This document shows, piece after piece, positions 7,554-55,954 of a stretch of DNA of 61,049 nt; the first letter of the stretch is position 1, and each line of letters starts with the position of its first letter. The notes beneath the pieces were generated by a model. It did no database searches and was not told where the DNA came from. It worked only from the letters and a program-made list of their open reading frames with translations. This DNA comes from an uncultured Anaerolineales bacterium (GTDB taxonomy: Bacteria; Chloroflexota; Anaerolineae; Anaerolineales; Villigracilaceae). The position numbers were made by a program, and so were the translations under genes. The stretch is taken from NCBI GenBank assembly GCA_903873975.1, contig CAIQQN010000294.1, positions 1 to 61,049 on the forward strand, in the 5' to 3' direction.

Positions 7554-8949
7554 TCCGTTTATCCTTGGTTTGAAGGAGGACGCTTTGGTGGGTATACAAA
7601 GAAATTTCGAGGTTTGCCAGTTCTTCAGCCTCCAACCTCGCCGTGACCGGGTTCCGGTTCTTGGCTACCCATTTCCGAAGTGGCTCAGCCCACTTTACCA
7701 GTGCCTGCGCGTCAGCGGGATAGTGACTGCGGCGCGTACCAATGTTGATCCATTTGAATCTGTCCAGCGCGGCGGTCCATTCGTCAAACGGTACACGGTC
7801 CGGGGGGAGGGAGAAGGTTGCCAGCGGTGAGAAAAAAACCGGTTTCCCGCCTGGGAAGTGCATCCGCATTTCCTTAAGGTAGTCCAGGCTGTCATCAGTG
7901 TTGAAGATCAACCACAGCGGGAGGAGTCCGCTTTGCATGGCAGCACTGGAATCAAACTGACTGAACATTTCCACCAGCACACCTGATGGTGGGCGGCCTT
8001 CTTTTTCGAGTAGTCTCTGCGCTGCGGAAAAAGCCAGGCGGGAGAAGTCGTTCGGCTGGCGCAGTGGAATATGCACATAACGGAAACCCTCACGTTTACA
8101 GAAAGCCTCCAGCGCCGTGTCCATACCTGGCTCTGAGCCCCATTCAGATTCGGGACCGCGTTCCAGCGGATAGCCTTTCAACTTCCAATCGGTCAAGGTT
8201 ATCCCGGCTGAACGTGCATATACCCGCAACCGGTCACTGCTTTCGAGGAATTCTTCTGCTGAAATACCGCCCCAGCCGCCCACCTGGAACACACTGCGCG
8301 GTCCTACTCGATAGCGAAGCCACGAAGCCCCACCTTCCAGGTAGGCTACCGCACCGCCTGGTTCAAGTCTGGACTTGATAAATTCGGCATAAGCCCGCGG
8401 CAGGTTGAGCAGTTTGAAGCGCAGGTGGTTGACGAAGCGTGTCAGCCAACCATCGTGGACCGGGTCGTAATGCTGGATGGTCATCAACCCCGGGTTTTCG
8501 TCCGCGAGGCGCAGGGCAATATCCAGAGAACGATGCAGGTACTCGTTCACGTTTCCAGTCCGGGCCCCTTGCTTGAGTGTGGTGACAAAAGTCTGAGGCA
8601 GAAACGGACCTCCCAGAGCCAAGGACAGGTAGGTGGTCGCTCCACCGAGCGCCGCCCCAACCGTGACAGCCGGGAAATTTCCGGGTAGTTGCGCATAGTC
8701 ATTAAGTCGTTGGCGTACAAGTTCTTCAATCGAGAAATCGTCCAGCACTTTGGGAGGCAGGCCGGATATGGACTGGAAATGGCTAATGGAAAAACGTGCT
8801 GCACCCTGCGGTAGCGAGCCCAATACAGACAAGAACGTTTTTTGCCAGCCGGGAAATTCATAATTGTTGCAGAATTCGCCTTGTAAGCCGGCGGCAACCG
8901 CGCGCGTCACAATGGGGGAGGAACTTTCAGTGGATTCGAGTGCGGACAT
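7543..8949 (-). CDS. Hypothetical soluble protein (468 aa), function unknown
   Basis: Long uninterrupted ORF with no TM segments and no motif I recognise. Its 3' end overlaps the start of the TPR-hydrolase gene by 11 nt. Confidence 0.65.
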   Translation of the reverse strand: MSALESTESSSPIVTRAVAAGLQGEFCNNYEFPGWQKTFLSVLGSLPQGAARFSISHFQSISGLPPKVLDDFSIEELVRQRLNDYAQLPGNFPAVTVGAALGGATTYLSLALGGPFLPQTFVTTLKQGARTGNVNEYLHRSLDIALRLADENPGLMTIQHYDPVHDGWLTRFVNHLRFKLLNLPRAYAEFIKSRLEPGGAVAYLEGGASWLRYRVGPRSVFQVGGWGGISAEEFLESSDRLRVYARSAGITLTDWKLKGYPLERGPESEWGSEPGMDTALEAFCKREGFRYVHIPLRQPNDFSRLAFSAAQRLLEKEGRPPSGVLVEMFSQFDSSAAMQSGLLPLWLIFNTDDSLDYLKEMRMHFPGGKPVFFSPLATFSLPPDRVPFDEWTAALDRFKWINIGTRRSHYPADAQALVKWAEPLRKWVAKNRNPVTARLEAEELANLEISLYTHQSVLLQTKDKRNDH

Positions 8950-9004
8950 AGTGCCTCGTGAGAAGAGTATAATAATTCTACTTCAAGAATCAAAGAAGGT
9001 GACT

Positions 9005-9904
9005 ATGGATATTGCACTGGCACTCGGCGGTGGTGGATCGCGCGGTTTTGCTCACATTGGCGTGCTGCGTCGTCTGGAAGAAGAGGGCTACCGGGTGCGG
9101 GCGGTGGCTGGCACCAGCGCAGGCGGTATCGTCGGAACGTTGTATGCTGCCGGATACACACCGGACGAAATGGAAGCGAGGCTTTCCAAACTGGACCAGA
9201 CCAAATTATTCGGCCGCTCCAGTGGAGAGGGGCCGTCCATCTTGGGCTTAGGGGGCGCCACCAGGGTGCTGGAGGAATTCTTCGGCGACCTTACGTTTGA
9301 GAAATTAAGACTGCCTTGTGCGGTGGTGGCTGTGGATATTAAATCTGCGCAGGAAGTTATTTTAAGCGAAGGATGCGTAGTGGATGCTGTCTTGGCGACA
9401 TGCGCAATCCCGGCCATTTTCCCGCCCCGGCTAATAGGGGAGCACCAATTGGTGGATGGTGCCACCCTTGACCCAGTACCCGTTTCCGTTGCCCGATCGC
9501 TAGCGCCCACGCTACCAACGGTTGCCGTTGTTCTGACACCGCTGTTGGGGCGGAAAAGGAATCTGTTATCCCTGGGTTTCCCTTTACGAATCCCTACGCC
9601 AATTGTGGAGCGACTTTATCGTCTGCGCCTTGCCCAGGCGCTCAACATCTATATCCAAGCCACGGACGCAGGAGCGCGAATGCTGACCGAACTACGTCTA
9701 AAACTGGATGCTCCCGACGTGATCGTCAGACCTGACGTGGAGGGGGTTGGTTTGCTCGAAAAGGTGGATGTGCATAAAATCATCCGGCTGGGTGAGCAAG
9801 CCATGGATGCCGCCCTCACTGACCTCGAGCATGCCACAGCGTGGCCGAACCGCCTGCGTAGAAAATACTTTTCACCAGGCAGGAGAATATTAAGTGACCC
9901 GTGA
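9005..9904 (+). CDS. Patatin-like phospholipase
   Basis: MDIALALGGGGSRGFAHIGVL (oxyanion GGxR), nucleophile GTSAG and a catalytic DGA. The start is set to ATG 9005, which follows GAAGGTG; the upstream in-frame extension lacks homology. Confidence 0.85.
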   Translation: MDIALALGGGGSRGFAHIGVLRRLEEEGYRVRAVAGTSAGGIVGTLYAAGYTPDEMEARLSKLDQTKLFGRSSGEGPSILGLGGATRVLEEFFGDLTFEKLRLPCAVVAVDIKSAQEVILSEGCVVDAVLATCAIPAIFPPRLIGEHQLVDGATLDPVPVSVARSLAPTLPTVAVVLTPLLGRKRNLLSLGFPLRIPTPIVERLYRLRLAQALNIYIQATDAGARMLTELRLKLDAPDVIVRPDVEGVGLLEKVDVHKIIRLGEQAMDAALTDLEHATAWPNRLRRKYFSPGRRILSDP

Positions 9905-42422: not shown

Positions 42423-42890
42423 GTGCAACTATATCGAGGTAGAATGCCAAACCAAACTCTGAACCCCATCCTGATCGAAAAATTTTGGGAAAGCATCCCG
42501 CCTGTTTGGCGGCAGACGCGCAACCAGATCCGCCGTATCGCGGTGGAGAAGTTCCAGATGACCGAGGAACAGTTTCAAGTCCTGCGCCGCATCCGCAAGG
42601 GCAGCACCTCGGTCAGCGCCCTAGCAGAAGCCAGCCAGACCAGCCGCTCCGCGGTCAGCAAGACAGTGGAAGCGCTTGTACGCAGGGATCTGGTCGCCCG
42701 TGGCGAGGACCCGGATGACCGGCGCAATATCCCATTGGCGCTCACGGAAGAGGGCCAGCGTGTAATGAATACCATTTTCATCGAAGCAGAAGCATGGCTG
42801 TCTGCCCGTTTCGAGCATCTAAGCCCAGTCGAACTGGAAACCCTCCAGCAAGGCATGGAAACTCTCCGCAAAGCATTTATAAACCCTTAA
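42423..42890 (+). CDS. MarR-family transcriptional regulator
   Basis: Winged-helix pattern (FQVLRRIRKGSTSVSALAEASQTSRSAVSKTVEALVRRDLV.R..DPDDRR). GTG start at 42423, with ATG 42444 as an alternative. Confidence 0.85.
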   Translation: MQLYRGRMPNQTLNPILIEKFWESIPPVWRQTRNQIRRIAVEKFQMTEEQFQVLRRIRKGSTSVSALAEASQTSRSAVSKTVEALVRRDLVARGEDPDDRRNIPLALTEEGQRVMNTIFIEAEAWLSARFEHLSPVELETLQQGMETLRKAFINP

Positions 42891-42909
42891 TCAATTTTCA
42901 TCCCGTCGC

Positions 42910-44739
42910 ATGAAACATCTCTTCAAACTACGCGCATATCTCAAACCATACCTCTTGCAACTCATGCTCGATATGTTCCTATTATTGAGCATGACCGGTC
43001 TCTCGCTGGTAGTACCGCAAATCATACAGGGTGTGATCGACCAGGGCTTAAAAGCCGGATCAACCGCATTCCTGATCCGCTCAGCGCTGATCCTGGTTGG
43101 CATCGGAGCAGCCACGGCTGCCCTGAACCTCGGCCAGCGTTATCTGACTGAATGGATTGGAGCATACGTGGGTTATGACCTGCGCAATGCCATGTACGAC
43201 CGCATCCAGTACCTGCCATTCACCTATCACGACCATAGCACCACCGGCCAATTGATCAACCGTTGTATCGAAGACGTACGCGCCGTCCAGTCCTTCGCGG
43301 GGGATAGTCTGGTCCAAATCGTACAATTAGGCGTCCTTTCGGTTGGAGTAGTAACTATTCTGGTCGCCCGCAACCACTGGTTGGCAGTTATCGTCCTCTT
43401 GCCACTCATCCCGATGGTCATGATGACGACCGACTTTGGACAACGCATCACCCATCTATTTTACGATGTGGACAATACCCTCGGCGACCTCTCTGCCCAG
43501 TTACAGGAAAATATTTCTGGGGCTCAAGTGGTCCGTGCCTTCGCCCGCGAGTCGCACGAGGTTGACCGTTTCGACCGAATCAACCGCTCCTATTTCAAGG
43601 CGCGCATCAAAGTGCTTGGCGAATGGTCAAAGGTCATGCCCACCACCAACTTGCTCATCACCATGGGGACCATCTTGATCCTGATGGTCGGCGGTCCTTT
43701 GGTATTGCAAGGGAAGATGACTGTTGGCGAACTGGTTGCGTTCAATGCCTACCTTCTTATGCTTTCGGGTCCGGTGCAGCAGTTGGCGTGGCTGGTTAAC
43801 GCCTTGGGAGAGTCTGAAGCCGGGGCACAACGAGTTCTGGAAATCCTGGAACACGAGCCGGAGATCCAATCACCGACGAATGCCGTAGTGCTCGGGGTTC
43901 TAAGCGGCCGTGTGGAATTCCAAGGCGTTTCCCTTCGTTACCAGGATGAAAAGATCGATGCACTTTCCTGCATTGACTTGTTCGTTAAGCCGAATCAGCT
44001 CATTGCACTCATCGGTCAGACTGGCTCCGGCAAAACATCCCTTGTCAACCTGATCCCGCGCTTTTATGATGTGAGCGAGGGTGTTGTTTTGGTGGATGAT
44101 TTAGATGTACGCCAGGTCGATCTTGGATCCCTGAGGCGGCAAATTGGCATTGTACTCCAAACATCGCTGCTCTTTTCCGATACCATCCGCGAGAACATCC
44201 GTTACGGCCGATCTGAGGCCACCGACGCGGAGATTTTCACTGCAGCGAAAGCAGCCCAGGCACACGATTTCATAGTCAAGTTTGCTGAAGGTTACGAGAC
44301 AATGGTCGGCGAGCGCGGTGTGACGCTTTCCGGCGGCCAGAGACAACGAATAGCCATCGCCCGTGCCCTCCTGATGAATCCCCGCATCCTTATCTTGGAC
44401 GACTCGACCTCAAGTGTGGATACACAGACCGAAAAACTTATCCAGGAGGCACTCGACCGACTCATGGAGGGCCGCACGACGTTCGTAATCGCACACCGAC
44501 TGGCTACCATCAGGCGAGCAGATCTGATCCTGGTCATGGACAATGGACAAATTGTCCAACGCGGCCGGCATGATGAATTGCTCAAGGAAGGCGGCCTATA
44601 TAAGGAAATCTATGACCTGCAATTAAGCCAGCAAAACCGATTCTTCGAAGAGGTCGAGGAGGAAGAGGAACTCTTCGTTCGCGAACGAGAACACGAGACC
44701 ATCAAAGGCCGCCGCACATCAGACCGGTCGTTATCATAA
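42910..44739 (+). CDS. Heterodimeric ABC exporter, subunit with degenerate catalytic site (TMD-NBD half transporter)
   Basis: Six-TM exporter domain, GQTGSGKTSLVN and LSGGQRQRIAIARAL. The Walker B is ILILDDSTS, with Asp in place of the catalytic Glu. Confidence 0.9.
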   Translation: MKHLFKLRAYLKPYLLQLMLDMFLLLSMTGLSLVVPQIIQGVIDQGLKAGSTAFLIRSALILVGIGAATAALNLGQRYLTEWIGAYVGYDLRNAMYDRIQYLPFTYHDHSTTGQLINRCIEDVRAVQSFAGDSLVQIVQLGVLSVGVVTILVARNHWLAVIVLLPLIPMVMMTTDFGQRITHLFYDVDNTLGDLSAQLQENISGAQVVRAFARESHEVDRFDRINRSYFKARIKVLGEWSKVMPTTNLLITMGTILILMVGGPLVLQGKMTVGELVAFNAYLLMLSGPVQQLAWLVNALGESEAGAQRVLEILEHEPEIQSPTNAVVLGVLSGRVEFQGVSLRYQDEKIDALSCIDLFVKPNQLIALIGQTGSGKTSLVNLIPRFYDVSEGVVLVDDLDVRQVDLGSLRRQIGIVLQTSLLFSDTIRENIRYGRSEATDAEIFTAAKAAQAHDFIVKFAEGYETMVGERGVTLSGGQRQRIAIARALLMNPRILILDDSTSSVDTQTEKLIQEALDRLMEGRTTFVIAHRLATIRRADLILVMDNGQIVQRGRHDELLKEGGLYKEIYDLQLSQQNRFFEEVEEEEELFVREREHETIKGRRTSDRSLS

Positions 44740-44755
44740 TTCGAGTTAACCAACC

Positions 44756-46561
44756 ATGACTACAACTACTATCATCCCACCCGCCTTCGTTACTGAGTCC
44801 GAAGAGCTTTATGACAAGGGTGTTAACCCTCATACAGCAAAGCGGCTGATTGAATTCACCCGCCCCTATATGTGGCGGATGATCCTCTCCGCTTTGCTTA
44901 TGCTGATCGCCTCCGCTGCATCAGTTGCAGGACCGTACTTTGTAAAAATCGCCATAGACAGTGGTATCAACGGAGGTAACGCCACTATCTTGCGCTACAC
45001 TACCCTGGCCTATTTGATCGTTTCTGTAATCCAATGGGTCGGTACTTATTTCCGGGTCAATATCATGGCCTGGATCGGGCAATCCATCATCTATGACGTG
45101 CGCAAAAGACTTTTCGCACATCTACAGGAACTTTCACTCAGCTTTTACAGCCGTTACTCAGTTGGACGTGTAATCACACGAGCCATCAACGATGTGGAAA
45201 CACTGAGAGATTTTCTGACCTGGGCTGTGCTGGCCATTGCCCGGGATGTCTTTACCCTGGCTATGATCATTCTTGTAATGCTGGATATGGATGTGCGCCT
45301 GGCGCTGCTCACTTTTAGTGTTCTACCTATCATGGTGCTTATTACTATTCTCTTCCGGCGCGCTTCACGTGCTGCCTATCGTAAAGTGCGCGCTGCCGTC
45401 TCTTGGGTAAACTCTGTCCTGGCTGAAAACGTGAATGGCGTACGAGTCATCCAGGCCTTCTCCAGGCAAAAGCAGAACTATGAAAACTTCCGGGATTATG
45501 TGAACCGCTATCACCTCGGACGGGCGATTGCAACGGCCCGCATCTCGTCCGTGTTCAGCCCAAGCGTGGATTTACTTGGAGCAATTGCAACTGGCCTTAT
45601 TGTCTGGCTAGGTGGAGCTGCAGTACTTGGCGAAACCATCACTGCAGGTGTGCTGGTGGCTTTCATCCTGTATATCGAACGATTCTTCGAGCCCATCCGC
45701 GACCTGAGCCGCCGTTATGACGCACTTCAGTCCACAATGATCGGCTGGGAACGGATCATGGGGCTTATGGATACACCGGTCGAGGTCCAGGACGCTGTAC
45801 AAGCAATTGACCTGCCTGCCATCCGAGGCGAGGTGACCTTTGAACATGTTTCGTTCCATTATTCAGATGACCCAGCGCCAATTCTAATTGACATTGACCT
45901 GCATATCCACCCAGGCGAAACAGTTGCCCTTGTCGGCGAAACCGGCGCAGGGAAGACCACCATGGTCAAACTGCTCTCCCGATTCCACGACCCGACGGAT
46001 GGCCGCATCCTGGTAGACAACCATGATCTGCGAATGGTGACACAGGCTTCCCTGCGACGACAGATGGGAGTGGTATTGCAGGATCCGTTCCTGTTCAATG
46101 GGACGGTGGCGGAGAATATCCGTTTTGGGAGGCTGACTGCGACAGATACCGAGGTTGAAGTCGCAGCAAAAGCAGTTGGAGCGCACAACTTCATCGTCAA
46201 TTTGCGTAAAGGTTACGAGACATCAGTCGAGGAGGGAGGCGTGATGCTATCGGTGGGCCAGCGGCAACTACTTTCTTTTGCGCGCGCGCTCCTGGCTGAC
46301 CCGCGCATTCTCATCCTCGACGAAGCCACTTCGTCGGTGGATACACAGACCGAGCAGGTTATTCAAAAAGCCCTGGCGCGGCTACTGAAAGGACGGACCT
46401 CCTTTGTCATCGCGCACCGCCTGTCAACCATCATGCACTCGGACCGGATCGTGGTAATTCATGATGGGAAAATCGTGGAGCAAGGTACTCATACCGAGCT
46501 GCTTGTGAAGCAGGGGATGTATTACGAACTTTATCGAACAGGATTTCAGGAAAAAGAATAG
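44756..46561 (+). CDS. Heterodimeric ABC exporter, consensus-site subunit
   Basis: GETGAGKTTMVK, a degenerate signature LSVGQRQLLSFARAL, and Walker B ILILDEATS with the catalytic Glu present. Confidence 0.9.
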   Translation: MTTTTIIPPAFVTESEELYDKGVNPHTAKRLIEFTRPYMWRMILSALLMLIASAASVAGPYFVKIAIDSGINGGNATILRYTTLAYLIVSVIQWVGTYFRVNIMAWIGQSIIYDVRKRLFAHLQELSLSFYSRYSVGRVITRAINDVETLRDFLTWAVLAIARDVFTLAMIILVMLDMDVRLALLTFSVLPIMVLITILFRRASRAAYRKVRAAVSWVNSVLAENVNGVRVIQAFSRQKQNYENFRDYVNRYHLGRAIATARISSVFSPSVDLLGAIATGLIVWLGGAAVLGETITAGVLVAFILYIERFFEPIRDLSRRYDALQSTMIGWERIMGLMDTPVEVQDAVQAIDLPAIRGEVTFEHVSFHYSDDPAPILIDIDLHIHPGETVALVGETGAGKTTMVKLLSRFHDPTDGRILVDNHDLRMVTQASLRRQMGVVLQDPFLFNGTVAENIRFGRLTATDTEVEVAAKAVGAHNFIVNLRKGYETSVEEGGVMLSVGQRQLLSFARALLADPRILILDEATSSVDTQTEQVIQKALARLLKGRTSFVIAHRLSTIMHSDRIVVIHDGKIVEQGTHTELLVKQGMYYELYRTGFQEKE

Positions 46562-46717
46562 AGCGGTCGCTTTGACCACTCGATCAGCAGCTGACCTATT
46601 CCCAGAAAAGTCAACTCAATATATACTATCCGCGCTATGTTCTGGCGGCTGCATCAGCCCGGTTTATAAGATGGTCTTTTCTTTTCATTGTGTATGTTCT
46701 CTGAAAAAGGAGAGATT

Positions 46718-46933
46718 ATGGCACAAACCTTTAATTGTACAGGTTGCGGCGCAATACTGGAATATCATGGGGAGCCTGAGCACACAATGCTCTGCCAATA
46801 TTGCAGCACCAACTTGCATGTTCCTGAAGAATACTTGCAGGAGGCTGAATTAAAACAAACGATGAACAAATGGGGGAAGTATTTGATTATTTTCTGGTTA
46901 TCACCGTTGGGATCCCCACCTGCCTTGGACTAA
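46718..46933 (+). CDS. Small zinc-ribbon protein (possibly the N-terminal part of a frameshifted gene)
   Basis: AGGAG 5 nt before the ATG. It reads MAQTFNCTGCGAILEYHG..MLCQYCSTNLHVP (CxxC..CxxC), but the tail after NKW looks non-native. Confidence 0.5.
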   Translation: MAQTFNCTGCGAILEYHGEPEHTMLCQYCSTNLHVPEEYLQEAELKQTMNKWGKYLIIFWLSPLGSPPALD

Positions 46934-47070: not shown

Positions 47071-47760
47071 TTGAAGAATAGAATGGAGAATAACCACAAA
47101 CTTTGGAATGAACAACAGCGAGCATTACGCATTGCGCTTGGTCGAACGGAGCAGTCTAATAAATCGATTGAGTTGTTTCTAACCCAACATGCAATGGTCC
47201 ATGCAGCGGATATGTCGGGCATGGAACAATGGTCATTTGAAGGTGAAATTTGGGAAAACCTGGACAATGAAACTGCACGCCATATCCCCCCTAAGTTCGA
47301 TCATTCCATTGTATGGTGCTTCTGGCACGCAACCCGTTGCGAAGATATCACAATGAACATGCTCATCGCTGGAGCCTCGCAACTTTTACTTCGGGACAAT
47401 TGGCAGAAGCAGTTGAATGTCGCCGCGCGTGATACCGGCAATGCCATGGATGCAGGTGAAATGGTTGATTTCAACGCCTGGATTGACATCCCGGCGCTAA
47501 GGGCTTATCGCCTGTCGGTTGGCCAATGTACACGCGAGATTGTCAAGACTTTACAACCGGGTGAATTCAAGTGCAAGGTCGACCCGGTTCGCCTGCAACA
47601 AGTGCTGGCTGAGGAGGCAGTACTCGCCTCGCAGCAATGGCTGATTGATTACTAGGGCAGGTTGACGGTAGCTGGCCTGCTGCTAATGCCCCTTACACGG
47701 CACAGCCTCGTCCATTTGAACGAGGCGATGAAAATCAAACTAAGGTACTTTCGGAATTGA
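47071..47760 (+). pseudogene. DinB_2-like metal-dependent protein with an in-frame TAG
   Basis: SIVWCFWHATRCEDITMN matches the DinB_2 helix. A TAG at 47653-47655 follows LIDY. The same frame then continues as GRLTVAGLLLMPLTRHSLVHLNEAMKIK, carrying the C-terminal HxxxH, to TGA 47758-47760. Confidence 0.6.
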
Positions 47761-47884: not shown

Positions 47885-50800
47885 ATGACAGATTCCTCAC
47901 CTTCCGCCAAATTAACGATAAGAACCGGCCCTGGCGCGGGTCAAGTAATTATTCTTACAGATAAGGAACTGGTCATTGGGCGAGGGGCATCAGCCGGTCT
48001 CATCATCAGACAACTAGAGGTATCCCAACGGCATGCACATATTATTCTTCAAGGGAATAATTTCTGCCTGGAAGACCTGGGCAGCAGTAATGGGACTTTC
48101 ATCAATGGGAAACGAATCCAGGGGCTTCAAACACTTACCAATGGTGATGAGATTTCTCTGGGGCCTAATGTAATTCTGATGTTTAGCCAACAACGGATTC
48201 CTGCCCAATCCTTTGAAGATATTCTGGCATCTGGCACTTCTACATCCCAAGGCCCCAAGATCGCCAAGACCATGCTGGATATCGATTCTGATCTGGCAAG
48301 CACTCGCCCTTCCAAACCCGCCATTCCGCCAAGTCTACTTGTTACAGTTGCAGGGCAGGAATCACAAAAATTTTCTCTAACGAAGAACAAGATTACATTG
48401 GGCCGCGCAGAGGACAATGACATTATCGTGCCGTCCATGATCGTGTCCCGTCATCATGCCATTCTTGAATTGACAACCAGTGGATATGAAATCGAAGTTC
48501 TGCCTGGCGCAACCAACACGCTTACCTGTCAGGGTCGTCCGGTAACTGAACGGAAACTACTTGCGCATGACGATGTGATCCGCATCGATAGTGAAATTGC
48601 AGGCATGATGGTAAGCATGACGTACCAGTCACCCTTGCAGGCGGCCGCGAGACTCCCGTACGTTGTTCAGTTTGGTGAAAAGGAGAAGCTTACCTTCGGA
48701 CGCGACCCTCTTAACGATGTTGTATTGGATATGCCCAATGTCTCACGCTTCCATACCCAGGTGACGCGTGTGGGAAGGCGATATTATGTCACCGACCTTC
48801 ACAGTGTGAATGGCACTTTTGTCAATGACAAGCGCGTGACAGGCGATGTATGGCTCAACCCACAAGATACTATCCGCATCAGTACTTTCAGGTTGGTGAT
48901 GGGCGAGGATCAATTCACCCGTTACGATGAGACGGAGGGGCTGCGGGTGGAAGCCTACCAACTAAATAAATGGGTGCGCAAGAATCTGAACCTACTCCAG
49001 GATATCTCGTTGGTTTATCAGCCGCGTGAGTTCATTGTTGTGGTGGGACAAAGCGGTGGAGGAAAATCCACGCTGCTCGATGCCATCGCCGGCTACCGTC
49101 CAGCCACGCACGGAAATGTGCTTGTCAACGATATTGATATATATCGCAATTTCGATACCATCCGAAACGAAATTGGCTACGTTCCTCAAAGAGACATTAT
49201 CCATATGGAACTAACGGTATACCAGGCACTGGATTTCGCAGCCCAGTTGCGCATGCCCAAAGACACCAGCAAGGAAGAGCGCCACAAGCGTATCATGGAA
49301 GTGTTGGATGATCTTGACCTGACACACCGCAAGGATGTGAAAGTCAGCGGCCTGAGCGGAGGGCAGCAGAAACGTGTTTCGATTGGTGTGGAATTGCTCA
49401 CCCGCCCGGGTTTGTTCTTCCTGGATGAACCTACTTCGGGTCTTGATCCCGGTACCGAGACGGCTTTCATGCACCTGATGCGCCGTCTAGCCGACCAGGG
49501 TCGCACCATTATCATGGTCACTCATGCTACTAAAAATGTTATCCTGGCGGACAAGGTGGTTTTCCTGGCGCGCGGCGGTTATCTGACCTGGTTCGGACCT
49601 CCGGATGAGGCTCTGGCGTATTTCGACCAGTACCGTAGCGAGCAAGAACGGCGAATACGTCCGATGGAATTTGATCAAATCTATGCCATCCTTGATGATC
49701 CCAAGCAGGGAAAGGCTAAAGATTGGGCAGAACGCTTCAAGGCCAGCCCAGCATATTCCAAATACATCATCGAAACATTGAAGGGGCATGAAAAAACACT
49801 TAAAACAGCGCCAGCCCAGCCGGTTAAGAAAAAGGCGCGGGTGGGTTCACGCATTTCATCGCTGCAACAGTTTATTGTGCTTTCCAAACGGAATCTCACT
49901 ATTTTGACGCGCGACCGAACGAGTCTGGTCTTAATGTTAGCCGCTGCGCCTGCGATGGGGGCTTTATCTCTGTTCCTTGCACCTGCGATGGGAAAGACGC
50001 CATTCGCCTTCGTGGGAGGGAATGCTGCAAGTGGCGGAACTTCCCTGTTCCTGCTGACCATTTTTTCTTTGCTGATTAGTGGCATGTCTCAAATGCGCGA
50101 ATTTGTAAAGGAAGCAGATATTTACAAGCGCGAACGGTTGGTCAATATACGCATAATCCCTTATGTTGCATCGAAAGTTTGGGTGGCGTTGTTGCTGGCA
50201 TTCTGGCACGCACTGGCCTATACCGTCCTGAACTATCTTTCTTTCAAGATGCCGGGTGGATTATTGGAGTTTGTCGAATTTTATGTAACCGTCTTGCTGG
50301 CTGTGATGACCGGTATGATGCTTGGCCTTTTTGCTTCTGCCATCGCGCCTAACGCTGCATCAGCTCCGCTACTTATCATTATGTTGATGGTGCCGTTAAT
50401 CGTGTTGAGCGGCGCGCTGGCTCCAATACCGCCTGCCATCAGCCAAATCGCATCCACTCGTTGGGCTTACCAAGGATTGCTGGGAATTGTGGGGATGGGC
50501 TCAGACATAGCTGCTGACCCATGTTGGCATCTTGATAAAGACCTGCAGGATGCCATGGATCTGGATGACAAGGCCTACCAGCAATGCCGCTGTATGGGCG
50601 TACAGATGCTAACCGAAGGTAACTGTAATTTTCCGGGGACAGGGGATTTTATGGTGGCTGCGATTGTTGAACAAGCCCCCACCGAGCCCCCACCCTTGGC
50701 AGAACCTCCCGCGGAACCGGTTATTCCTCCGGCTCCCAGCTTACCTGAGGATAAATATGACCAGGTGAAAATGGTGGAGTACCTGAATGCTTTGAGTGAC

Positions 50801-51124
50801 TACCAGAACAATGTGAAAGCCATTCAGGAAAATTACCGAAACGAGATGGAGCTCTACCAGGTTATGGGAGATGTCTACCAGGCCGAGATGACCAAGTACC
50901 TTGAAGAACTGGCGACCTATAATATTTCCCGAGTTTCAGCGGTCAAAGGCGCCGAAGGAGTCATCGAACTTTTTAATGAAAAATATGGCTGGGCCTGGGT
51001 CAATAAAGATGATCCGAAAATTTTCTTTCCCTGGTTATTTAAGACCTGGTTTGCCCAGATCGAGATTGTGATGGTGTATCTTGTCATCATCCTGATTATG
51101 ATCAAAAGGAAGGATGTTAAATGA
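47885..51124 (+). CDS. Three FHA domains + ABC ATPase + ABC-2 membrane domain (ABCG/Rv1747-like) with a ~185-aa extracytoplasmic insert
   Basis: FHA signatures GR..SxxH..NG at aa ~32-70, ~173-212 (NG missing) and ~272-310. Walker A is GQSGGGKST, the signature is LSGGQQKR and Walker B is LFFLDEPTSGLD. The ABC-2 helices span aa ~680-870. The Cys/Pro/coiled-coil insert spans aa ~872-1055, and a final TM helix follows. AGGAG precedes the ATG. Confidence 0.9.
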   Translation: MTDSSPSAKLTIRTGPGAGQVIILTDKELVIGRGASAGLIIRQLEVSQRHAHIILQGNNFCLEDLGSSNGTFINGKRIQGLQTLTNGDEISLGPNVILMFSQQRIPAQSFEDILASGTSTSQGPKIAKTMLDIDSDLASTRPSKPAIPPSLLVTVAGQESQKFSLTKNKITLGRAEDNDIIVPSMIVSRHHAILELTTSGYEIEVLPGATNTLTCQGRPVTERKLLAHDDVIRIDSEIAGMMVSMTYQSPLQAAARLPYVVQFGEKEKLTFGRDPLNDVVLDMPNVSRFHTQVTRVGRRYYVTDLHSVNGTFVNDKRVTGDVWLNPQDTIRISTFRLVMGEDQFTRYDETEGLRVEAYQLNKWVRKNLNLLQDISLVYQPREFIVVVGQSGGGKSTLLDAIAGYRPATHGNVLVNDIDIYRNFDTIRNEIGYVPQRDIIHMELTVYQALDFAAQLRMPKDTSKEERHKRIMEVLDDLDLTHRKDVKVSGLSGGQQKRVSIGVELLTRPGLFFLDEPTSGLDPGTETAFMHLMRRLADQGRTIIMVTHATKNVILADKVVFLARGGYLTWFGPPDEALAYFDQYRSEQERRIRPMEFDQIYAILDDPKQGKAKDWAERFKASPAYSKYIIETLKGHEKTLKTAPAQPVKKKARVGSRISSLQQFIVLSKRNLTILTRDRTSLVLMLAAAPAMGALSLFLAPAMGKTPFAFVGGNAASGGTSLFLLTIFSLLISGMSQMREFVKEADIYKRERLVNIRIIPYVASKVWVALLLAFWHALAYTVLNYLSFKMPGGLLEFVEFYVTVLLAVMTGMMLGLFASAIAPNAASAPLLIIMLMVPLIVLSGALAPIPPAISQIASTRWAYQGLLGIVGMGSDIAADPCWHLDKDLQDAMDLDDKAYQQCRCMGVQMLTEGNCNFPGTGDFMVAAIVEQAPTEPPPLAEPPAEPVIPPAPSLPEDKYDQVKMVEYLNALSDYQNNVKAIQENYRNEMELYQVMGDVYQAEMTKYLEELATYNISRVSAVKGAEGVIELFNEKYGWAWVNKDDPKIFFPWLFKTWFAQIEIVMVYLVIILIMIKRKDVK

Positions 51125-52146
51125 CCCGCAAACCAAAACCCTTTCTTCCAATGATTATTCTGACAATTACCCTGCTGCCCATTATGGCTTGTGTTGTTGG
51201 CACGAAAGTACTGGATCCCATGTTGCTGACACTTACACCGATGAGTGCATCAGTCAAAGGGACCGCCACTGCCCGGGCTGGGAATGCCGGCTCAAGCGAT
51301 GAACTGGCGACCGCTATTGCAAAGGCCACCGAGCAGGCCGGGTTCATCTATGGAACCCAAACTGCTGTTGGAGCGCTCAATGAACCGTCCCGGCTGGCAA
51401 CTGCAACCGCCATTGCTCCAGTGGTGGCAGAATTACCCCGCTATGGGATCGACCCGGCGGAGGGTTATGTAGCCTGGCTGCACGATCCAGCGACGATTGA
51501 ATTGCAGGGTCCCAATCAGACCGGATATGCCAGCGAATATCCACAAACAACGGCCATAGATTTTGTGATGGCAGCTGATATCACCTGGAATACCAAGAAC
51601 AGCATCTTCGGCTGCGGGTTCATGTTCCGCTCGGATGGCAATACCAACAAGCCAAATCAATACACCGTTATCATTACGCGCGTTGCCAGCGGCTATATAG
51701 CGTTCATGGCCATGGCAGATGGAAAGATCGCCAACTTCCAGACCTACTTCCCAAAAAACGAAGATCGATCCTTCAGTTGGTTCAACGATGCGACCAACCG
51801 GCTGGTGGTAGTGGCGCGCGGCAACCTGCTAGACCTGTACACGAACGGAGTTCTGATCGGCAAAGTGGACACCACAACACCACCCCCAAACTCGATCCCC
51901 AATCCGCCCACCTTTACGCTTCCTGACAATGCGAACGCACAGATGGTACAGGATTTCCAAGATCAAAGTTCCATTTTCGACGACAGTATCAACCAAATCA
52001 ACTCACAACTGGCGGAGGCCAGACACAACTACGGCAACCAGCCGGCCATTTTCACCGATGGCTTCCTGGGATTTATCGGCGTCAGCCAATCAGGGACAAT
52101 GTCATGTAAATTTGAAAACGCCTGGTTGTTTATCCTTGAGAAATAG
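51121..52146 (+). CDS. Lipoprotein with a DUF1080/concanavalin-like domain
   Basis: The start overlaps the transporter stop (ATGA). The signal is LTITLLPIMAC. DUF1080-like blocks: DFVMAADITWNTKNSIFGCGFMFRSDG, LLDLYTNGVLIGKV and GFLGFIGVSQSGTMSCKFENAWLFILE. Confidence 0.65.
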   Translation: MTRKPKPFLPMIILTITLLPIMACVVGTKVLDPMLLTLTPMSASVKGTATARAGNAGSSDELATAIAKATEQAGFIYGTQTAVGALNEPSRLATATAIAPVVAELPRYGIDPAEGYVAWLHDPATIELQGPNQTGYASEYPQTTAIDFVMAADITWNTKNSIFGCGFMFRSDGNTNKPNQYTVIITRVASGYIAFMAMADGKIANFQTYFPKNEDRSFSWFNDATNRLVVVARGNLLDLYTNGVLIGKVDTTTPPPNSIPNPPTFTLPDNANAQMVQDFQDQSSIFDDSINQINSQLAEARHNYGNQPAIFTDGFLGFIGVSQSGTMSCKFENAWLFILEK

Positions 52147-52249: not shown

Positions 52250-54079
52250 CTACTTGATTACCGGTACTGCGTTCGGTACCGCCACCCCATAAGCCTGTTC
52301 CTTCTCGACCTTGAACTGCTGAGTGTACAGGCGGTAGTAGTGGCCGTGCAAACTGAGCAGTTCGGCGTGCGTACCCATCTCAGCGATGCGACCCTCTTCA
52401 ATTACCACAATACGGTCCGCCCGGCGGATGGTGCTCAGGCGATGGGCAATGATGAAGGAGGTACGTCCTGCCATCAAAGCCTCCATGCCGCGCTGGATGA
52501 GGGCCTCGGTCAGCGTGTCCACGCTGGAGGTGGCCTCGTCCATGATGAAGATCTCGGGTCTTGACAGCACCGCCCTTGCCAGGCTGATGAGTTGTTTCTG
52601 TCCAACCGAGAGCAGATTGCCGCCCTCACCAACTTCCTGTTCATAACCTTTCTCGAAGGTGGTGATGAAATCGTGCGCCCCAGCGATCTTTGCTGCGGCT
52701 TCGACATCGTCGTTCGAGGCATCCAGCCGGCCGTAGCGGATGTTCTCACAGATCGAACCGGAGAACAAGTGCGGGGTCTGAAGCACGATGCCCACCCGGC
52801 TGTGGATGGACTGCAGAGTATAGTTGGTGTAGTCGCGACCATTGATGGAGATGAATCCTTCTTTTGGCTCGTAGAAGCGGCACAGCAGATTGACGATGGT
52901 CGTCTTCCCACCACCAGTCGGCCCGACCAGGGCGATGGTTTCGCCTGGCTTAACTTTCAATGAGAAATCGGTCAGGATCGGCTTACGGTCCTCGTAGTAA
53001 AAATGGACATGGTCAAACTCAATTGCTCCCTGGATTGTCTCAGCCACGATTGCTTCGGGGCGGTTCTGGACCTCAGGGACAGTATCGAGTAATTTGAAGA
53101 TACGCTCAGCTGAAGCAATGGAGTTCTGCATGTCGGCATAAACGCGCGCCAAGTCCTGTATTGGCCAAATTATGAAGGTCAGGTACGAGACAAAAGCGTG
53201 GATATCGCCTACCGAGAACTTGGCGGTAACACTCTGCATCCCGCCATACCAGACGATGGCGCCCAGTGCAAATGCTGCCACAACCTGCACGGTCGGCAGG
53301 AAGAGCGCCGAGAGCCAGGCGGCACGGTAGGAGGCTTTGAACATGTCGTCGGTCAGGACTGAGAACTCTTCCAGGTTTTCGTCCTCGCGGCCAAGCGCCT
53401 TGACCACCCGCACGCCTTGAATGTTCTGGTTATACTCGCCGGTGATCTTCGAGTTGGCACGCCGCGACTTGCGGAACTCAACCAGGATCTTCTTGCGGAA
53501 GTTGATGGCGATGATAAGCAGAATGGGAATGATCGCAAAAACGATCAACGCCAGTTTCCAGTTGATGTACAGCATGAAGATCACCGACATTGTCACACTG
53601 ACGATGGCCCAGGTCACATCAAGCATACCCCAGGTCATCAAGCTGGAAATGCGGCCCGAATCCGAGGTTACGCGCGCCATCAGGCGTCCCACCGCGTTCT
53701 GGCTGTAGTACGAGAGGGACAGATCCTGCAGGTGGTTAAAGATGGACCGGCGAATGTCATACTGGATGCGTTCGCCCATGATGCCGACCAGGAAAATAAA
53801 GATGAAAACCGAGACGGCCTGCACCAATTGCAACCCACCATAGTATGAGGCATACCTCAAAAGGGTGGGAATGCTCTTCTGGGCGATGCCCTGGTCGATC
53901 ATATCCTTGTTGATGTATGTAAAGATGGCATCCAGGCTGGCGGTAAAGACGATGGCGATCAGGAATCCAGCCATCCAGCGCCAGTGAGGTTTCACCAGTC
54001 CCATTATGCGTTTGAGGGTGGGAGTGGTCAACAGGCTGGTATGTTCTTCTTCTTCGAGTTCAATCAATTCGTCAGGCAT
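52250..54079 (-). CDS. Heterodimeric ABC exporter, consensus-site subunit (pair 2)
   Basis: GPTGGGKTTIVN, a degenerate signature LSVGQKQLISLARAV, and Walker B IFIMDEATS. Confidence 0.9.
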   Translation of the reverse strand: MPDELIELEEEEHTSLLTTPTLKRIMGLVKPHWRWMAGFLIAIVFTASLDAIFTYINKDMIDQGIAQKSIPTLLRYASYYGGLQLVQAVSVFIFIFLVGIMGERIQYDIRRSIFNHLQDLSLSYYSQNAVGRLMARVTSDSGRISSLMTWGMLDVTWAIVSVTMSVIFMLYINWKLALIVFAIIPILLIIAINFRKKILVEFRKSRRANSKITGEYNQNIQGVRVVKALGREDENLEEFSVLTDDMFKASYRAAWLSALFLPTVQVVAAFALGAIVWYGGMQSVTAKFSVGDIHAFVSYLTFIIWPIQDLARVYADMQNSIASAERIFKLLDTVPEVQNRPEAIVAETIQGAIEFDHVHFYYEDRKPILTDFSLKVKPGETIALVGPTGGGKTTIVNLLCRFYEPKEGFISINGRDYTNYTLQSIHSRVGIVLQTPHLFSGSICENIRYGRLDASNDDVEAAAKIAGAHDFITTFEKGYEQEVGEGGNLLSVGQKQLISLARAVLSRPEIFIMDEATSSVDTLTEALIQRGMEALMAGRTSFIIAHRLSTIRRADRIVVIEEGRIAEMGTHAELLSLHGHYYRLYTQQFKVEKEQAYGVAVPNAVPVIK

Positions 54080-54124
54080 AGTTCAATTCTCCGCCAGGGG
54101 TACATTGTTGCTACCCCCTGTACA

Positions 54125-55954
54125 TTAAACAGAGGCAATCTCTTCTTCCAACTCCTCGTCAATTCGAGTCTGGATATCGTAAATCTTTCTATACATCCCG
54201 TCCTGCGAAACCAGTTCCGCGTGATTGCCCATCTGGACGATTTCGCCTTTGTCCATTACCAGGATCAAATCGGCGTTCATCACAGACTGGATACGGTGGG
54301 CAATGATGAACGTGGTCCGGTTTTTCATCAACCCGTTCAACGCCGAGCGGATCTCTGCTTCTGTTTCGGTGTCCACGCTGGATGTGGAATCGTCCAAAAT
54401 CAGGATGCGTGGGTTCTTCAGAAGAGTACGGGCTACAGCCACGCGTTGCTTCTGCCCGCCGGAGAGCGTCACGCCCTTCTCGCCGACAAGCGTGTTATAC
54501 CCGTCCGGGAAGGACAGGATCACGTCATGAACGGCGGCAGCTTGAGCAGCTTTCTCGATCTCTTTCTGCGGCACATCGCGACCCACGCCGTAATTGATGT
54601 TCTCGCGGATTGAACGGCTGAACAGGAATGGTTCCTGCTCAACGATGCCAATTTGCTGGCGCAGAGTTTCGCGTGAATAATCCTTCAATTCCGCTCCATC
54701 AAGAAGGATATGCCCGCCGGTATATTCATGAAAACGAGGCAGCAAATTGACGAGGGTGGTCTTACCCGAACCGGTCGAACCGAGCAGGGCAACGGATTGT
54801 CCTGGCTGGACAGCGAACGAGATACCCTTCAGGATATCAGTATTCCCATCGCTGTACTGGAACGAGACGTTCTCGAAGACAAGTTCGCCCCGTACCGGGC
54901 CTCGCACCTGCACCTTGCCATCGGTCAGAGGTTCACGTTCTTGTTTGACGATTTCCATCAGGCGGTCGTAGGAAACCAGACCAGTGGAGGTGTTAACAAT
55001 GATACGTCCCAGGTTGCGCATCGGCCAAATGAGCCAGACCACCAAGCCGACATATGCCGGGTATGTACCGATGGTGATCTCGCCATGGATCGCCAGGAGA
55101 CCGGCGTATATAAATCCAGCCAACATTTGAAAACCGCACAATAGGTCCGAGAGCGGCCAGAAGAGGGACTGCATTCGCATGAGTTTGCGACCGCGCAAGA
55201 ACTTCTCCCAGTTATCCTTTTCAAACTTGTCCATTTCGTAGCCTTGGCGGGCAAAGGCCTTGACCACGCGCACGCCGGTCAGATTCTCCTGGAGGGTTGT
55301 GGAGAGTTTCGCTTCCTGTTCCTGATATTTCTCGTAAGTCTTGGTCACCTTCTTAAAGAACCACATCGAAACAAGAACGATGACCGGGACAACCGCTATG
55401 GAGGCCAGTGCCAATTTCCAGGAAAGAATCCAAATGGCGATGAAATTGATTATAAATAACAGGACAATACGTCCTGCTCCAATAGCCTGGTCGTTGAAGA
55501 AGGCGCGTACCGAGTCCACGTCTGAGGTAACGCGCTCGATCAAGTCGCCGGTAGGGGTCTTGCTGTGGTAGGCGAACGACAGTCGCTGGATATGGTCAAA
55601 CAAAAAGTTGCGCACGCGGCGGGTGATATTTTCAGCTGAGTAAGAAGCCAGCCGGCTGGAGATGTAGGCGAACCCACCCTCAAATAAAGCCAAACCGATG
55701 AAGCCCAACGCAATCAGGATTAGGGTCCGTGAAAGAGTACCGGCGAACGGTGCAACATTGCCGACCACCGTGTCTGCAAAATTCCGCAACAGGAGATAGG
55801 TCAATGTTTTCGCCAGCGCCGATACAGCCAACGTCAGGTTGGCGGCCAGGTAGGGCAGCCGGTAGCCGGTCATCATGCGCAGCATACCGGCCAATTTCTT
55901 TTTGCTCAGGGCTTTGCGGAAATCAAAATAGGTTGAGGGTGCGATGGTTGCCAT
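54125..55954 (-). CDS. Heterodimeric ABC exporter, degenerate-site subunit (pair 2)
   Basis: GSTGSGKTTLVN, LSGGQKQRVAVARTL, and Walker B ILILDDSTS. Start uncertain: ATG 55954, or the internal Met at 55885. Confidence 0.9.
   Translation of the reverse strand: MATIAPSTYFDFRKALSKKKLAGMLRMMTGYRLPYLAANLTLAVSALAKTLTYLLLRNFADTVVGNVAPFAGTLSRTLILIALGFIGLALFEGGFAYISSRLASYSAENITRRVRNFLFDHIQRLSFAYHSKTPTGDLIERVTSDVDSVRAFFNDQAIGAGRIVLLFIINFIAIWILSWKLALASIAVVPVIVLVSMWFFKKVTKTYEKYQEQEAKLSTTLQENLTGVRVVKAFARQGYEMDKFEKDNWEKFLRGRKLMRMQSLFWPLSDLLCGFQMLAGFIYAGLLAIHGEITIGTYPAYVGLVVWLIWPMRNLGRIIVNTSTGLVSYDRLMEIVKQEREPLTDGKVQVRGPVRGELVFENVSFQYSDGNTDILKGISFAVQPGQSVALLGSTGSGKTTLVNLLPRFHEYTGGHILLDGAELKDYSRETLRQQIGIVEQEPFLFSRSIRENINYGVGRDVPQKEIEKAAQAAAVHDVILSFPDGYNTLVGEKGVTLSGGQKQRVAVARTLLKNPRILILDDSTSSVDTETEAEIRSALNGLMKNRTTFIIAHRIQSVMNADLILVMDKGEIVQMGNHAELVSQDGMYRKIYDIQTRIDEELEEEIASV

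Follow-up and report, generated by a model that had tools for sequence, protein, structure and literature searches.

A conserved gene pair of Anaerolineae encodes an FHA-bearing ABCG-type transporter with a putative outer spike and a likely concanavalin-like lipoprotein

Results and Discussion

The gene pair at the locus

The window analyzed here is a whole stretch of 61,049 nt of contig CAIQQN010000294.1 (GCA_903873975.1) from an uncultured Anaerolineales bacterium (Chloroflexota, Villigracilaceae). It carries a gene for an ABC transporter with three FHA domains, followed on the same strand by a gene for a likely lipoprotein with a concanavalin-like domain (Table 1). These two genes are one real, conserved envelope module of the Anaerolineae (Chloroflexota). 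The ATGA at 51121-51124 is common to the transporter stop and the lipoprotein start. An initial annotation, made from the letters of the DNA, had placed both open reading frames (ORFs) and their overlap, and ORF calling agrees with it almost to the base. Shine-Dalgarno-like sequences are found for both genes: AGGAG lies 8-9 nt 5' of the transporter ATG, and AAGGAAGGA lies within the 3' end of the transporter gene, ahead of the lipoprotein ATG. A database search retrieved 3210 relatives of the transporter at E<=1e-10, of which the best 120 are nearly all full length, share 58-86% identity with it and are of metagenomic origin; where named, they belong to Anaerolineales or Chloroflexota. For the lipoprotein, 438 homologues were retrieved, all of them 'hypothetical' and none with a Pfam domain. 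Given these numbers of relatives, both genes are genuine and conserved.

Table 1. Features of the transporter and lipoprotein genes. Positions are those of the window; aa, amino acids; TM, transmembrane helix; AF2, AlphaFold2 model; pLDDT, predicted local distance difference test. PF00498 scores are those of each FHA region scanned alone.
Feature	Position (nt)	Strand	Basis
Transporter gene, 1079 aa, FHA x3 / ABC ATPase / ABC-2 membrane	47885..51124	+	ORF, Pfam domains
FHA1, aa 8-102	47906..48190	+	PF00498 68.1 bits; G32, R33, S47, N69, G70 invariant; pLDDT 76-87
Variable linker 1, aa 103-148	48191..48328	+	Lowest conservation; pLDDT <30
FHA2, aa 149-249, divergent, T-N-T replaces N-G	48329..48631	+	PF00498 42.9 bits; R174, S188, H191, N211 invariant
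FHA3, aa 260-346	48662..48922	+	PF00498 67.6 bits; R273, S287, N309, G310 invariant
ABC ATPase domain, aa 353-600, P-M-E-F-D segment at end	48941..49684	+	PF00005; catalytic motifs
Connecting helix and TM1-TM5, aa 659-856	49859..50452	+	PF01061; hydropathy, charge bias; AF2 helices, pLDDT 78-95
Hydrophobic segments, aa 681-699, 714-732, 755-783, 803-821, 830-856, 1055-1073		+	Hydropathy
Outer cap, aa 857-928, four Cys	50453..50668	+	Cys conservation; short helices, pLDDT 86-92
Pro-rich arm, aa 929-959, proposed polyproline-II strand	50669..50761	+	Pro ladder; pLDDT ~85-90
Single long helix, aa 960-1037, Tyr ladder	50762..50995	+	AF2; pLDDT 81-90
TM6 (aa 1044-1078), basic tail KRKDVK, stop	51014..51124	+	Hydropathy peak 1055-1073; AF2 helix 1044-1078
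Lipoprotein gene, 341 aa, concanavalin-like domain	51121..52146	+	ORF; start overlaps transporter stop
Signal peptide and lipobox, aa 1-24 (...LLPIMA-C24)	51121..51192	+	Basic N-terminus, hydrophobic core 8-26
Ala/Thr-rich N-terminal region of mature protein, aa 25-110, T-L-T-P motif	51193..51450	+	Conservation
Concanavalin-like beta-sandwich, aa 111-341	51451..52143	+	AF2, pLDDT 85-95; Foldseek
Pro-rich stretch and helix inserted in sandwich, aa 253-313	51877..52059	+	Inside lipoprotein

The FHA domains and their linker

A Pfam scan of the whole transporter returns FHA in three stretches (E=9.8e-47), ABC_tran (PF00005) at aa 371-518 (E=1.3e-26) and ABC2_membrane (PF01061) at aa 661-849 (57 bits). 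The initial annotation had read one 1079-aa ORF with three FHA domains, an ABC ATPase and an ABC-2 membrane domain, arranged as FHA, nucleotide-binding domain (NBD) and transmembrane domain (TMD) like in mycobacterial Rv1747, and both the content and the order are those given by Pfam. All three FHA regions also pass the PF00498 gathering score (20.7 bits) when scanned alone. Conservation of the transporter was assessed in an alignment of 54 full-length homologues. Here, no FHA domain shows any substitution of the Arg, Ser and Asn by which phosphothreonine is contacted. The same applies to the accompanying His of FHA2, whereas that of FHA1 and of FHA3 has a conservation of at least 90%. The respective contact sets are R33/S47/H50/N69 (FHA1), R174/S188/H191/N211 (FHA2) and R273/S287/H290/N309 (FHA3). 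FHA1 and FHA3 have thus kept the phosphothreonine-binding signature that had been ascribed to them. FHA2 had been described as lacking its N-G pair; the Gly is indeed lost, but the Asn is retained as N211 in T-N-T. Altogether, the three FHA domains look competent for phosphothreonine reading. The nearest solved relatives of FHA1 are GarA, OdhI and FhaB.

Linker 1, between FHA1 and FHA2, is the least conserved part of the transporter, with a mean conservation of 0.35 versus 0.62-0.92 for the domains. Nonetheless, Thr129 in its K-T-M-L-D motif (codon 48269-48271) is invariant, and D132, acidic at +3 from this Thr, is at least 90% conserved. An invariant Thr with an acidic residue at +3 inside an otherwise variable, disordered linker makes T129 a candidate phospho-acceptor. 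As a universal phospho-site it was ruled out, its invariance being limited to relatives of at least 58% identity. Members of the transporter family carry between 0 and 4 FHA domains, with pattern-based counts taken qualitatively. Variants of 1203-1241 aa carry four, with a second FHA2-type domain duplicated into linker 1.

The ABCG-like core and its topology

In the ATPase domain, Walker A (GQSGGGKST), the Q-loop, the signature LSGGQQKR, Walker B (LFFLDEPTSGLD) with its Glu, and H547 of the H-loop are invariant, with the exception of three positions (S395, G509 and F512) that are at least 90% conserved. The domain lies N-terminal to the membrane domain. A family profile aligns with ABCG2 at E=9e-50 over aa 369-853, i.e., the NBD and TM1-TM5, and its alignment with ABCG8 and ABCG25 extends to aa 868-874. 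Foldseek with the AF2 model likewise ranks ABCG2 best (E=9e-18), followed by ABCG1, ABCG5/G8, ABCG16 and ABCG25; the best of these structural neighbors have E-values of ~1e-17 and 24-26% identity. The top NCBIfam match is TIGR00955 (eye-pigment precursor / ABCG; E=1.7e-66), whose trusted cutoff of 736 is not reached by the 225.2 bits of the transporter. Because TIGR00955 comes out on top yet below its cutoff, the core is ABCG-like (ABC-2, NBD first) while standing outside the eukaryote-centered subfamily. Judged by profile, fold and motifs, the transporter is a half-transporter of ABCG type, in which the NBD precedes the TMD and the ATPase motifs are intact.

The two loops that are required on the cytoplasmic side are basic (9 and 5 K/R), as is the C-terminal tail KRKDVK, in which R1075 is conserved to at least 90% and K1074, K1076 and D1077 do not vary. 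The loop of 198 aa between TM5 and TM6 (aa 857-1054) is acidic, with 31 D/E versus 15 K/R. Since the NBD is cytoplasmic, and given the hydropathy and charge bias, this loop is predicted outside, and the extracytoplasmic position that had been assumed for the insert holds as a prediction.

The outer insert between TM5 and TM6

The insert has a mean conservation of 0.67-0.75, comparable to that of the FHA domains, and contains no gaps in the 54 homologues. Being conserved and free of gaps, it is not the unconserved or low-complexity filler that the initial annotation had considered as an objection. Its four Cys (880, 901, 903 and 914), already listed there, are present and 100% conserved in the 54 database homologues and in 44 genome-derived transporter sequences from species-representative genomes. 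The Pro-rich stretch and the heptad Tyr segment are likewise present and conserved. Within the 44 genome-derived sequences, Pro 935, 942, 945, 948, 951 and 954 are 100% conserved, with a period of 3 from position 942 onward. Such a period places the Pro residues on one face of a polyproline-II (PPII) helix. In the AF2 model, aa 929-959 have no regular secondary structure and yet reach a pLDDT of ~85-90. The following aa 960-1037 are modeled as one unbroken 78-residue helix, succeeded by a turn and TM6. Along this helix, Tyr 966, 973, 984, 991, 998, 1005 and 1012 are 77-98% conserved in the same 44 sequences with a period of 7; Ile980 stands within the ladder, between 973 and 984.

The lengths of both arms vary together. 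Among all family members at hand, six length classes occur (Pro arm, helix arm): (28,62), (36,80), (40,91), (44,94), (47,101) and (54,105). The respective changes are -8/-18, +4/+11, +8/+14, +11/+21 and +18/+25 residues, a ratio of ~1:2. This co-variation fits two antiparallel arms, given a rise of 3.1 A per residue for a PPII helix versus 1.5 A for an alpha-helix. Based on the Pro and Tyr periodicities, the co-varying arm lengths and what the model gives in secondary structure and pLDDT, aa 929-1037 probably form an antiparallel alpha/PPII hairpin, a stiff spike of ~9 nm on the Cys-containing cap. The initial annotation had spoken of a coiled-coil insert. The long Tyr-heptad helix bears this out in part, but the insert is better read as a PPII/alpha-helix hairpin. 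A plain dimeric coiled coil is still to be kept in mind for the Tyr-heptad segment, though it leaves the invariant PxxP ladder and the 1:2 co-variation of the arms unexplained.

Pfam returns only noise for the insert alone. When the insert was searched against 1.84 billion representative proteins (E<=1e-3), 159 clusters were matched. In full-length proteins, the match to the insert ends no more than ~25-40 residues from the C-terminus. Nine of ten sampled proteins are ABC-2 proteins, with 0, 1, 2 or 3 FHA domains; one of these has a CHAT domain and two FHA domains. The Cys cap is the most distantly matching part of the insert in this search, and the helix reaches less far. These matches indicate that the outer module is specific to this transporter family and that FHA number is a variable add-on. 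In P0349 (1282 aa, from a metagenome), one of the proteins matching the Cys cap, a CHAT (caspase-like protease) domain precedes the two FHA domains, and these the ABC core.

The downstream lipoprotein

The lipobox MTRKPKPFLPMIILTITLLPIMA-C24 shows Ala, Gly or Ser before Cys in all 51 aligned homologues from which conservation of this protein was derived, with Cys in at least 90% of that column. The basic stretch, the hydrophobic core and the conserved A/G/S-C24 make the product a likely lipoprotein that would be processed and lipidated. The lipobox protein proposed downstream of the transporter is therefore found, with IMAC at the end of its signal sequence and C24 conserved. In the N-terminal region of the mature protein (aa 25-110), T37, T39, P40, T50, T94, T96 and A103-P106 are invariant, while T79 and T81 are listed as invariant only as part of the 51-sequence set. 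The AF2 monomer model gives this region a pLDDT below 55; that it serves for docking is only a guess. C165 and C329 in the sandwich are invariant as well.

For the fold, the best Foldseek match is CBM66, a carbohydrate-binding module (CBM) family (4b1m_B; E=2.6e-6, TM(target) 0.66, root-mean-square deviation 3.4 A). It is accompanied by structures of DUF1080 (PF06439, 3-keto-disaccharide hydrolase), namely 3imm, 3nmb, 3u1x, 3osd, 3s5q, 8v31 and 9fbe (E 1e-5 to 9e-5) and, beyond these, by galectins and GH16 enzymes. Neither Pfam nor NCBIfam matches the window lipoprotein, whether scanned whole or as the sandwich alone, at E-values up to 10. Three orthologues do have matches to PF06439 that remain below its cutoff of 26.8 bits (19.3, 15.8 and 12.5 bits; E=0.0012, 0.015 and 0.15). 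These cover the same part of the PF06439 model and are the best match in two of the three. A family profile compared to PDB sequences finds CBM66 weakly, at E ~0.9 over 33 residues. Of the label 'DUF1080/concanavalin-like' given by the initial annotation, the fold thus stands by virtue of Foldseek, with a faint PF06439 signal in orthologues, but membership of the family does not, as no Pfam or NCBIfam match is obtained. The name 'LptE/RlpB', attached by JGI to two lipoprotein homologues, was rejected since the fold is that of concanavalin-like lectins and CBMs, not of LptE.

Inside the sandwich, aa 253-313 comprise a Pro-rich stretch and then a 30-residue Gln-rich helix, a small echo of the Pro arm and helix of the transporter. 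This insertion is absent from the lipoprotein orthologue at locus L061, which weakens the idea that it docks on the spike.

Conservation of the pair and its kinase neighbors

To follow the pair through genomes, 64 lipoprotein-encoding loci were collected from a species-representative genome collection by means of two lipoprotein peptide patterns. Nearly all are Anaerolineales/Chloroflexota metagenome-assembled genomes (MAGs), plus the cultured Longilinea arvoryzae KOME-1. L015 and L040 are truncated at the end of their contigs, leaving 62 loci that can be tested. In 59 of these 62, the gene immediately preceding that of the lipoprotein, in the same orientation, encodes a transporter with the insert. 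The other three are L064, where transporter matches are fragmentary only, L028 and the distant L065. Conversely, three of three transporter homologues that were picked without regard to the lipoprotein precede a lipoprotein homologue. The linkage of both genes in relatives, on which the initial annotation had made its reading depend, is hereby established. The intergenic distance varies from -11 to +164 nt and the genes overlap in five of 19 measurable loci. Based on these distances, operon linkage is general and translational coupling is confined to some members, including the window. The flanking genes are wholly different between genomes (L001 and L066-L068 among those compared). As the flanks differ while the pair persists, the pair is the unit.

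A Hanks-like ORF occurs within the 6-kb flanks of 26 of the 64 loci. In 24, the kinase directly adjoins the pair: 21 lie downstream on the same strand and start 20-120 nt after the lipoprotein gene (Longilinea arvoryzae included), and three lie directly before the transporter. In two further loci, the kinase is found elsewhere in the 6-kb flank. Pfam confirmed Pkinase in seven out of seven sampled kinases; in five of them, an outer sensor domain could be identified (Peripla_BP_6, FGE-sulfatase, DUF4350 or PD40 repeat). The gene neighborhood in relatives shows that the kinase partner belongs to the membrane-bound Ser/Thr kinases of Hanks type and varies in its outer sensor domain.

Several individual loci deserve a separate description. 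The genome of L024 and L001 has, on the same 3.24-Mb contig, a second pair that is free of FHA domains (L025, 3601-7359). In its transporter (758 aa), the Cys cap and both the Pro and Tyr ladders are retained, and a lipoprotein partner of its own is present; this lipoprotein homologue counts 487 aa and has a long Pro/Thr-rich C-terminal tail. Because the FHA-less paralogue keeps all the rest, pump, spike and lipoprotein represent the core, and the FHA domains a regulatory add-on. The divergent locus L061 (3781-7764) comprises four genes in a row. They encode a transporter that has three FHA domains and whose spike is longer, a lipoprotein of 300 aa, an additional putative lipoprotein of 334 aa that has no Pfam matches, and a kinase whose outer domain is of the FGE-sulfatase type. 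At L028 (6001-8578), a lipoprotein homologue is followed by a Hanks kinase with no transporter upstream, and a complete pair is present at L055 in the same genome. In a relative with four FHA domains, L067, a Peptidase_M23 (LytM-type) gene (8845-9408) directly follows the lipoprotein gene, at this one locus only. Finally, L019 is a contig labeled as a Bacteroidota MAG that carries a pair with 56-77% identity to the window proteins; as all other loci are from Chloroflexota, this contig is probably mis-binned rather than the result of a transfer.

Comparison with known systems

The closest functional precedent is Rv1747 of Mycobacterium tuberculosis, which has N-terminal FHA domains, then an ABC ATPase and then an ABC-2 domain in one chain, with a disordered Thr-containing linker between the FHA domains. 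Rv1747 forms an operon with pknF, and PknF phosphorylates two linker Thr residues; both FHA domains of Rv1747 bind the phosphorylated linker epitopes and phosphorylation positively regulates the transporter (PMC3138270). A link to a glycolipid, phosphatidylinositol mannoside (PIM), was proposed for Rv1747 (PMC5549992). The analogy is strengthened by the Hanks kinase gene that adjoins the pair in 24 of the 64 relatives, as pknF adjoins Rv1747. The regulatory module of Rv1747 reportedly undergoes clustering or phase separation. The Rv1747 FHA-1 structure 6cah matches the FHA2 region of the window protein at E=1.8e-9, a comparison that covers FHA-1 only and not full-length Rv1747. In contrast to Rv1747 with its two FHA domains, the window transporter has three (0-4 in the family), no kinase gene accompanies it in the window, and its lineage is Chloroflexota rather than Actinobacteria. 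It also differs in having a putative spike of ~125 aa in its outer loop and an obligate lectin-like lipoprotein partner.

With ABCG2, ABCG1, ABCG5/G8 and ABCG25, the window protein shares the position of the NBD before the TMD and is similar in sequence profile and fold over the NBD and TM1-TM5. In ABCG2, extracellular loop 3 is the largest outer loop and contains functional Cys. ABCG half-transporters and the window protein alike have their largest outer loop between TM5 and TM6, with conserved Cys. Unlike these, the window protein reaches only 24-26% identity, carries N-terminal FHA domains and has a loop that is ~3x longer, with the Cys pattern C-x20-C-x-C-x10-C.

A Tyr-spaced helix that pairs with a PxxP-type strand also occurs in the stalk of streptococcal AgI/II (SpaP) and in the PP-fold of pancreatic polypeptide; the likeness to the spike is one of analogy, with no homology detected. 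In SpaP, Tyr residues interlock an alpha-helix with a PPII strand to form a stiff stalk (PMC7732690). SpaP exceeds 50 nm, whereas the predicted spike would measure ~9 nm, is built from a loop inside a membrane transporter chain and has no head domain at its tip. The lipoprotein sandwich resembles CBM66 (the levan-binding module of Bacillus SacC levanase) and DUF1080/PF06439 in its concanavalin-like fold, with weak sequence matches. It differs from them in its low identity (8-12%), its conserved N-terminal region of ~85 aa and its Pro-plus-helix insertion. FtsEX, MacB and LolCDE (type VII) similarly combine an ABC ATPase with a large outer element and an outer partner. This can only serve as a working analogy; the window protein is of ABC-2/ABCG type and has its outer element between TM5 and TM6. 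A literature search found no FHA-ABC transporter in Chloroflexi/Chloroflexota, no bacterial ABCG with FHA and no ABC transporter with an alpha/PPII outer stalk, within an incomplete literature coverage.

Proposed mechanism and alternative explanations

As the best explanation of the whole, and with modest confidence, we propose an envelope exporter that is gated by a kinase and probably carries a glycan-bearing lipid or a wall polymer precursor. By analogy to ABCG2, the transporter would act as a homodimer with two spikes per dimer. The membrane-bound Hanks kinase may phosphorylate a linker Thr (candidate T129) or a partner protein, by analogy to PknF and Rv1747. The FHA domains would read the phosphothreonine, which would switch or cluster the pump, so that its output would be set by Ser/Thr-kinase signaling. 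On the outside, the enlarged TM5-TM6 loop of ABCG type would provide the Cys cap with its stiff alpha/PPII spike of ~9 nm, and the co-transcribed lipoprotein would expose its sandwich, which resembles lectins or CBMs, on the outside of the membrane. ATP would then drive extrusion or flipping of the glycan-bearing lipid or wall polymer precursor, with the lipoprotein receiving or holding the cargo beside the spike. Many ABCG and ABC-2 pumps have lipid and sterol substrates; together with the lectin/CBM-like partner and the proposed PIM link of Rv1747, this is the reason for suggesting a glycolipid cargo. The initial annotation had arrived at a phospho-regulated envelope export or assembly module, a reading that our results support, with export or assembly as the part that we infer.

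A number of observations weigh against this kinase-gated exporter. No Hanks catalytic-loop motif occurs in window ORFs of at least 100 aa, in agreement with the earlier statement that the window holds no kinase gene, and the K-T-M-L-D motif with Thr129 is not universal among more distant relatives. The whole-chain AF2 model has a predicted TM-score (pTM) of 0.42 and a poorly modeled NBD. The putative contact between Pro arm and helix is derived from periodicities, arm lengths, secondary structure and pLDDT, and the tip of the spike bears no domain. The lipoprotein stays below every Pfam threshold and no sugar-binding residues were identified in it. Moreover, sampling by two peptide patterns favors closer relatives. 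Finally, no substrate, biosynthetic or glycosyltransferase gene is consistently linked to the pair, as the flanks differ.

The same parts allow a more far-reaching picture, which we regard as rather doubtful: an envelope-spanning device of single-membrane Chloroflexota, in which two ~9-nm spikes per dimer and the lipoprotein act as a rail or lever, and a kinase-gated ATPase uses them to bring a wall glycopolymer or a glycolipid across the cell wall, or exerts mechanical control over its assembly. If true, this would be a third solution beside the outer domains of ABCA type and the periplasmic domains of MacB/FtsEX type. Somewhat less probable still is pure mechanotransmission, where, as in FtsEX or MacB/LolCDE, ATP binding and hydrolysis would move the outer spikes and so switch the lipoprotein, or a wall enzyme that it recruits, in activity or position, with no substrate crossing. 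A long, stiff, conserved outer element with an empty tip, an obligate outer partner protein and the lack of biosynthetic genes linked to the pair all speak for it, as does the Peptidase_M23 gene directly after the lipoprotein in L067. However, this M23 neighbor is seen in one locus only, the lipoprotein belongs to no enzyme family recognizable by Pfam or NCBIfam, and the membrane domain is of the ABCG/ABC-2 type, whose characterized members move substrates. FtsEX and MacB have a membrane domain of another fold class, in which the outer domain follows TM1 and precedes TM2.

The pair could also be taken for a general efflux or self-resistance pump of ABCG2 or DrrAB type next to an unrelated lipoprotein gene, considering that four ABCB-type exporter genes and a MarR gene surround it in the window, that JGI names its homologues 'ABC-type multidrug transport system' and that the nearest solved structures are multidrug or sterol ABCG pumps. 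We consider this quite improbable: the JGI names are automatic, the ABCB and MarR neighbors are not conserved in relatives while the lipoprotein is, start and stop overlap in the window and several relatives, and a conserved outer spike and triple FHA input are foreign to known drug pumps. An equally small chance is given to a signaling scaffold, in which multivalent contacts between FHA domains and phosphothreonine would gather kinases and phosphothreonine proteins at the membrane, with ATPase activity or flux as the sensed input. Three to four FHA domains on a disordered linker, neighboring kinases with varied sensor domains and one family member with CHAT plus FHA would suit such a role. 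Yet, the FHA-less paralogue retains pump, spike and lipoprotein, which implies a core function independent of FHA, and the ATPase motifs are invariant.

Significance

To our knowledge, FHA-regulated ABC exporters are known essentially from Rv1747, of which substrate and gating are still debated. The transporter family described here constitutes a second, deeply diverged lineage with the logic of Hanks kinase, FHA and ABC-2 pump. New beside Rv1747 are the three to four FHA domains, the family-specific putative outer spike, the obligate concanavalin-like lipoprotein and the ABCG-like chassis. With its higher number of FHA domains, its naturally FHA-free paralogues and its constant outer partner, the family gives comparative leverage on the FHA control of ABC pumps. 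The spike, if true, would be the first alpha/PPII stalk inside a transporter loop and would let an ABCG-type pump extend into the cell wall in a novel manner. As far as we know, little has been established on envelope assembly in Anaerolineae. A conserved, near-universal pair with a lectin-like lipoprotein offers an entry point to this process, and it is present in the cultured Longilinea arvoryzae KOME-1. The module is relevant to the fields of ABC transporters and bacterial Ser/Thr signaling, within the limits set by the lack of genetics in these organisms.

Neighboring genes in the window

Upstream of the pair, a MarR gene and two genes for ABCB-type half-transporters are located at 42444-46561 (+). 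Two further ABCB half-transporter genes follow downstream at 52250-55954 (-), which brings the total to five ABC exporter genes in 13 kb. Directly upstream of the transporter lies an ORF of the DinB_2 superfamily (47071-47655, +; PF12867, E=1.1e-5), which also resembles mycothiol transferase NF047843 weakly (39 bits, far below the cutoff of 170). The ABCB genes, MarR and DinB were rejected as parts of the module and are chance neighbors, given that the flanks of L001 and L066-L068 are unrelated. In addition, an 81-aa ORF at 46688-46933 (+) has two CxxC pairs, a hydrophobic C-terminus and weak zinc-ribbon-like Pfam matches (E>0.006); in ENA contigs, a 71-aa gene is called at this position.

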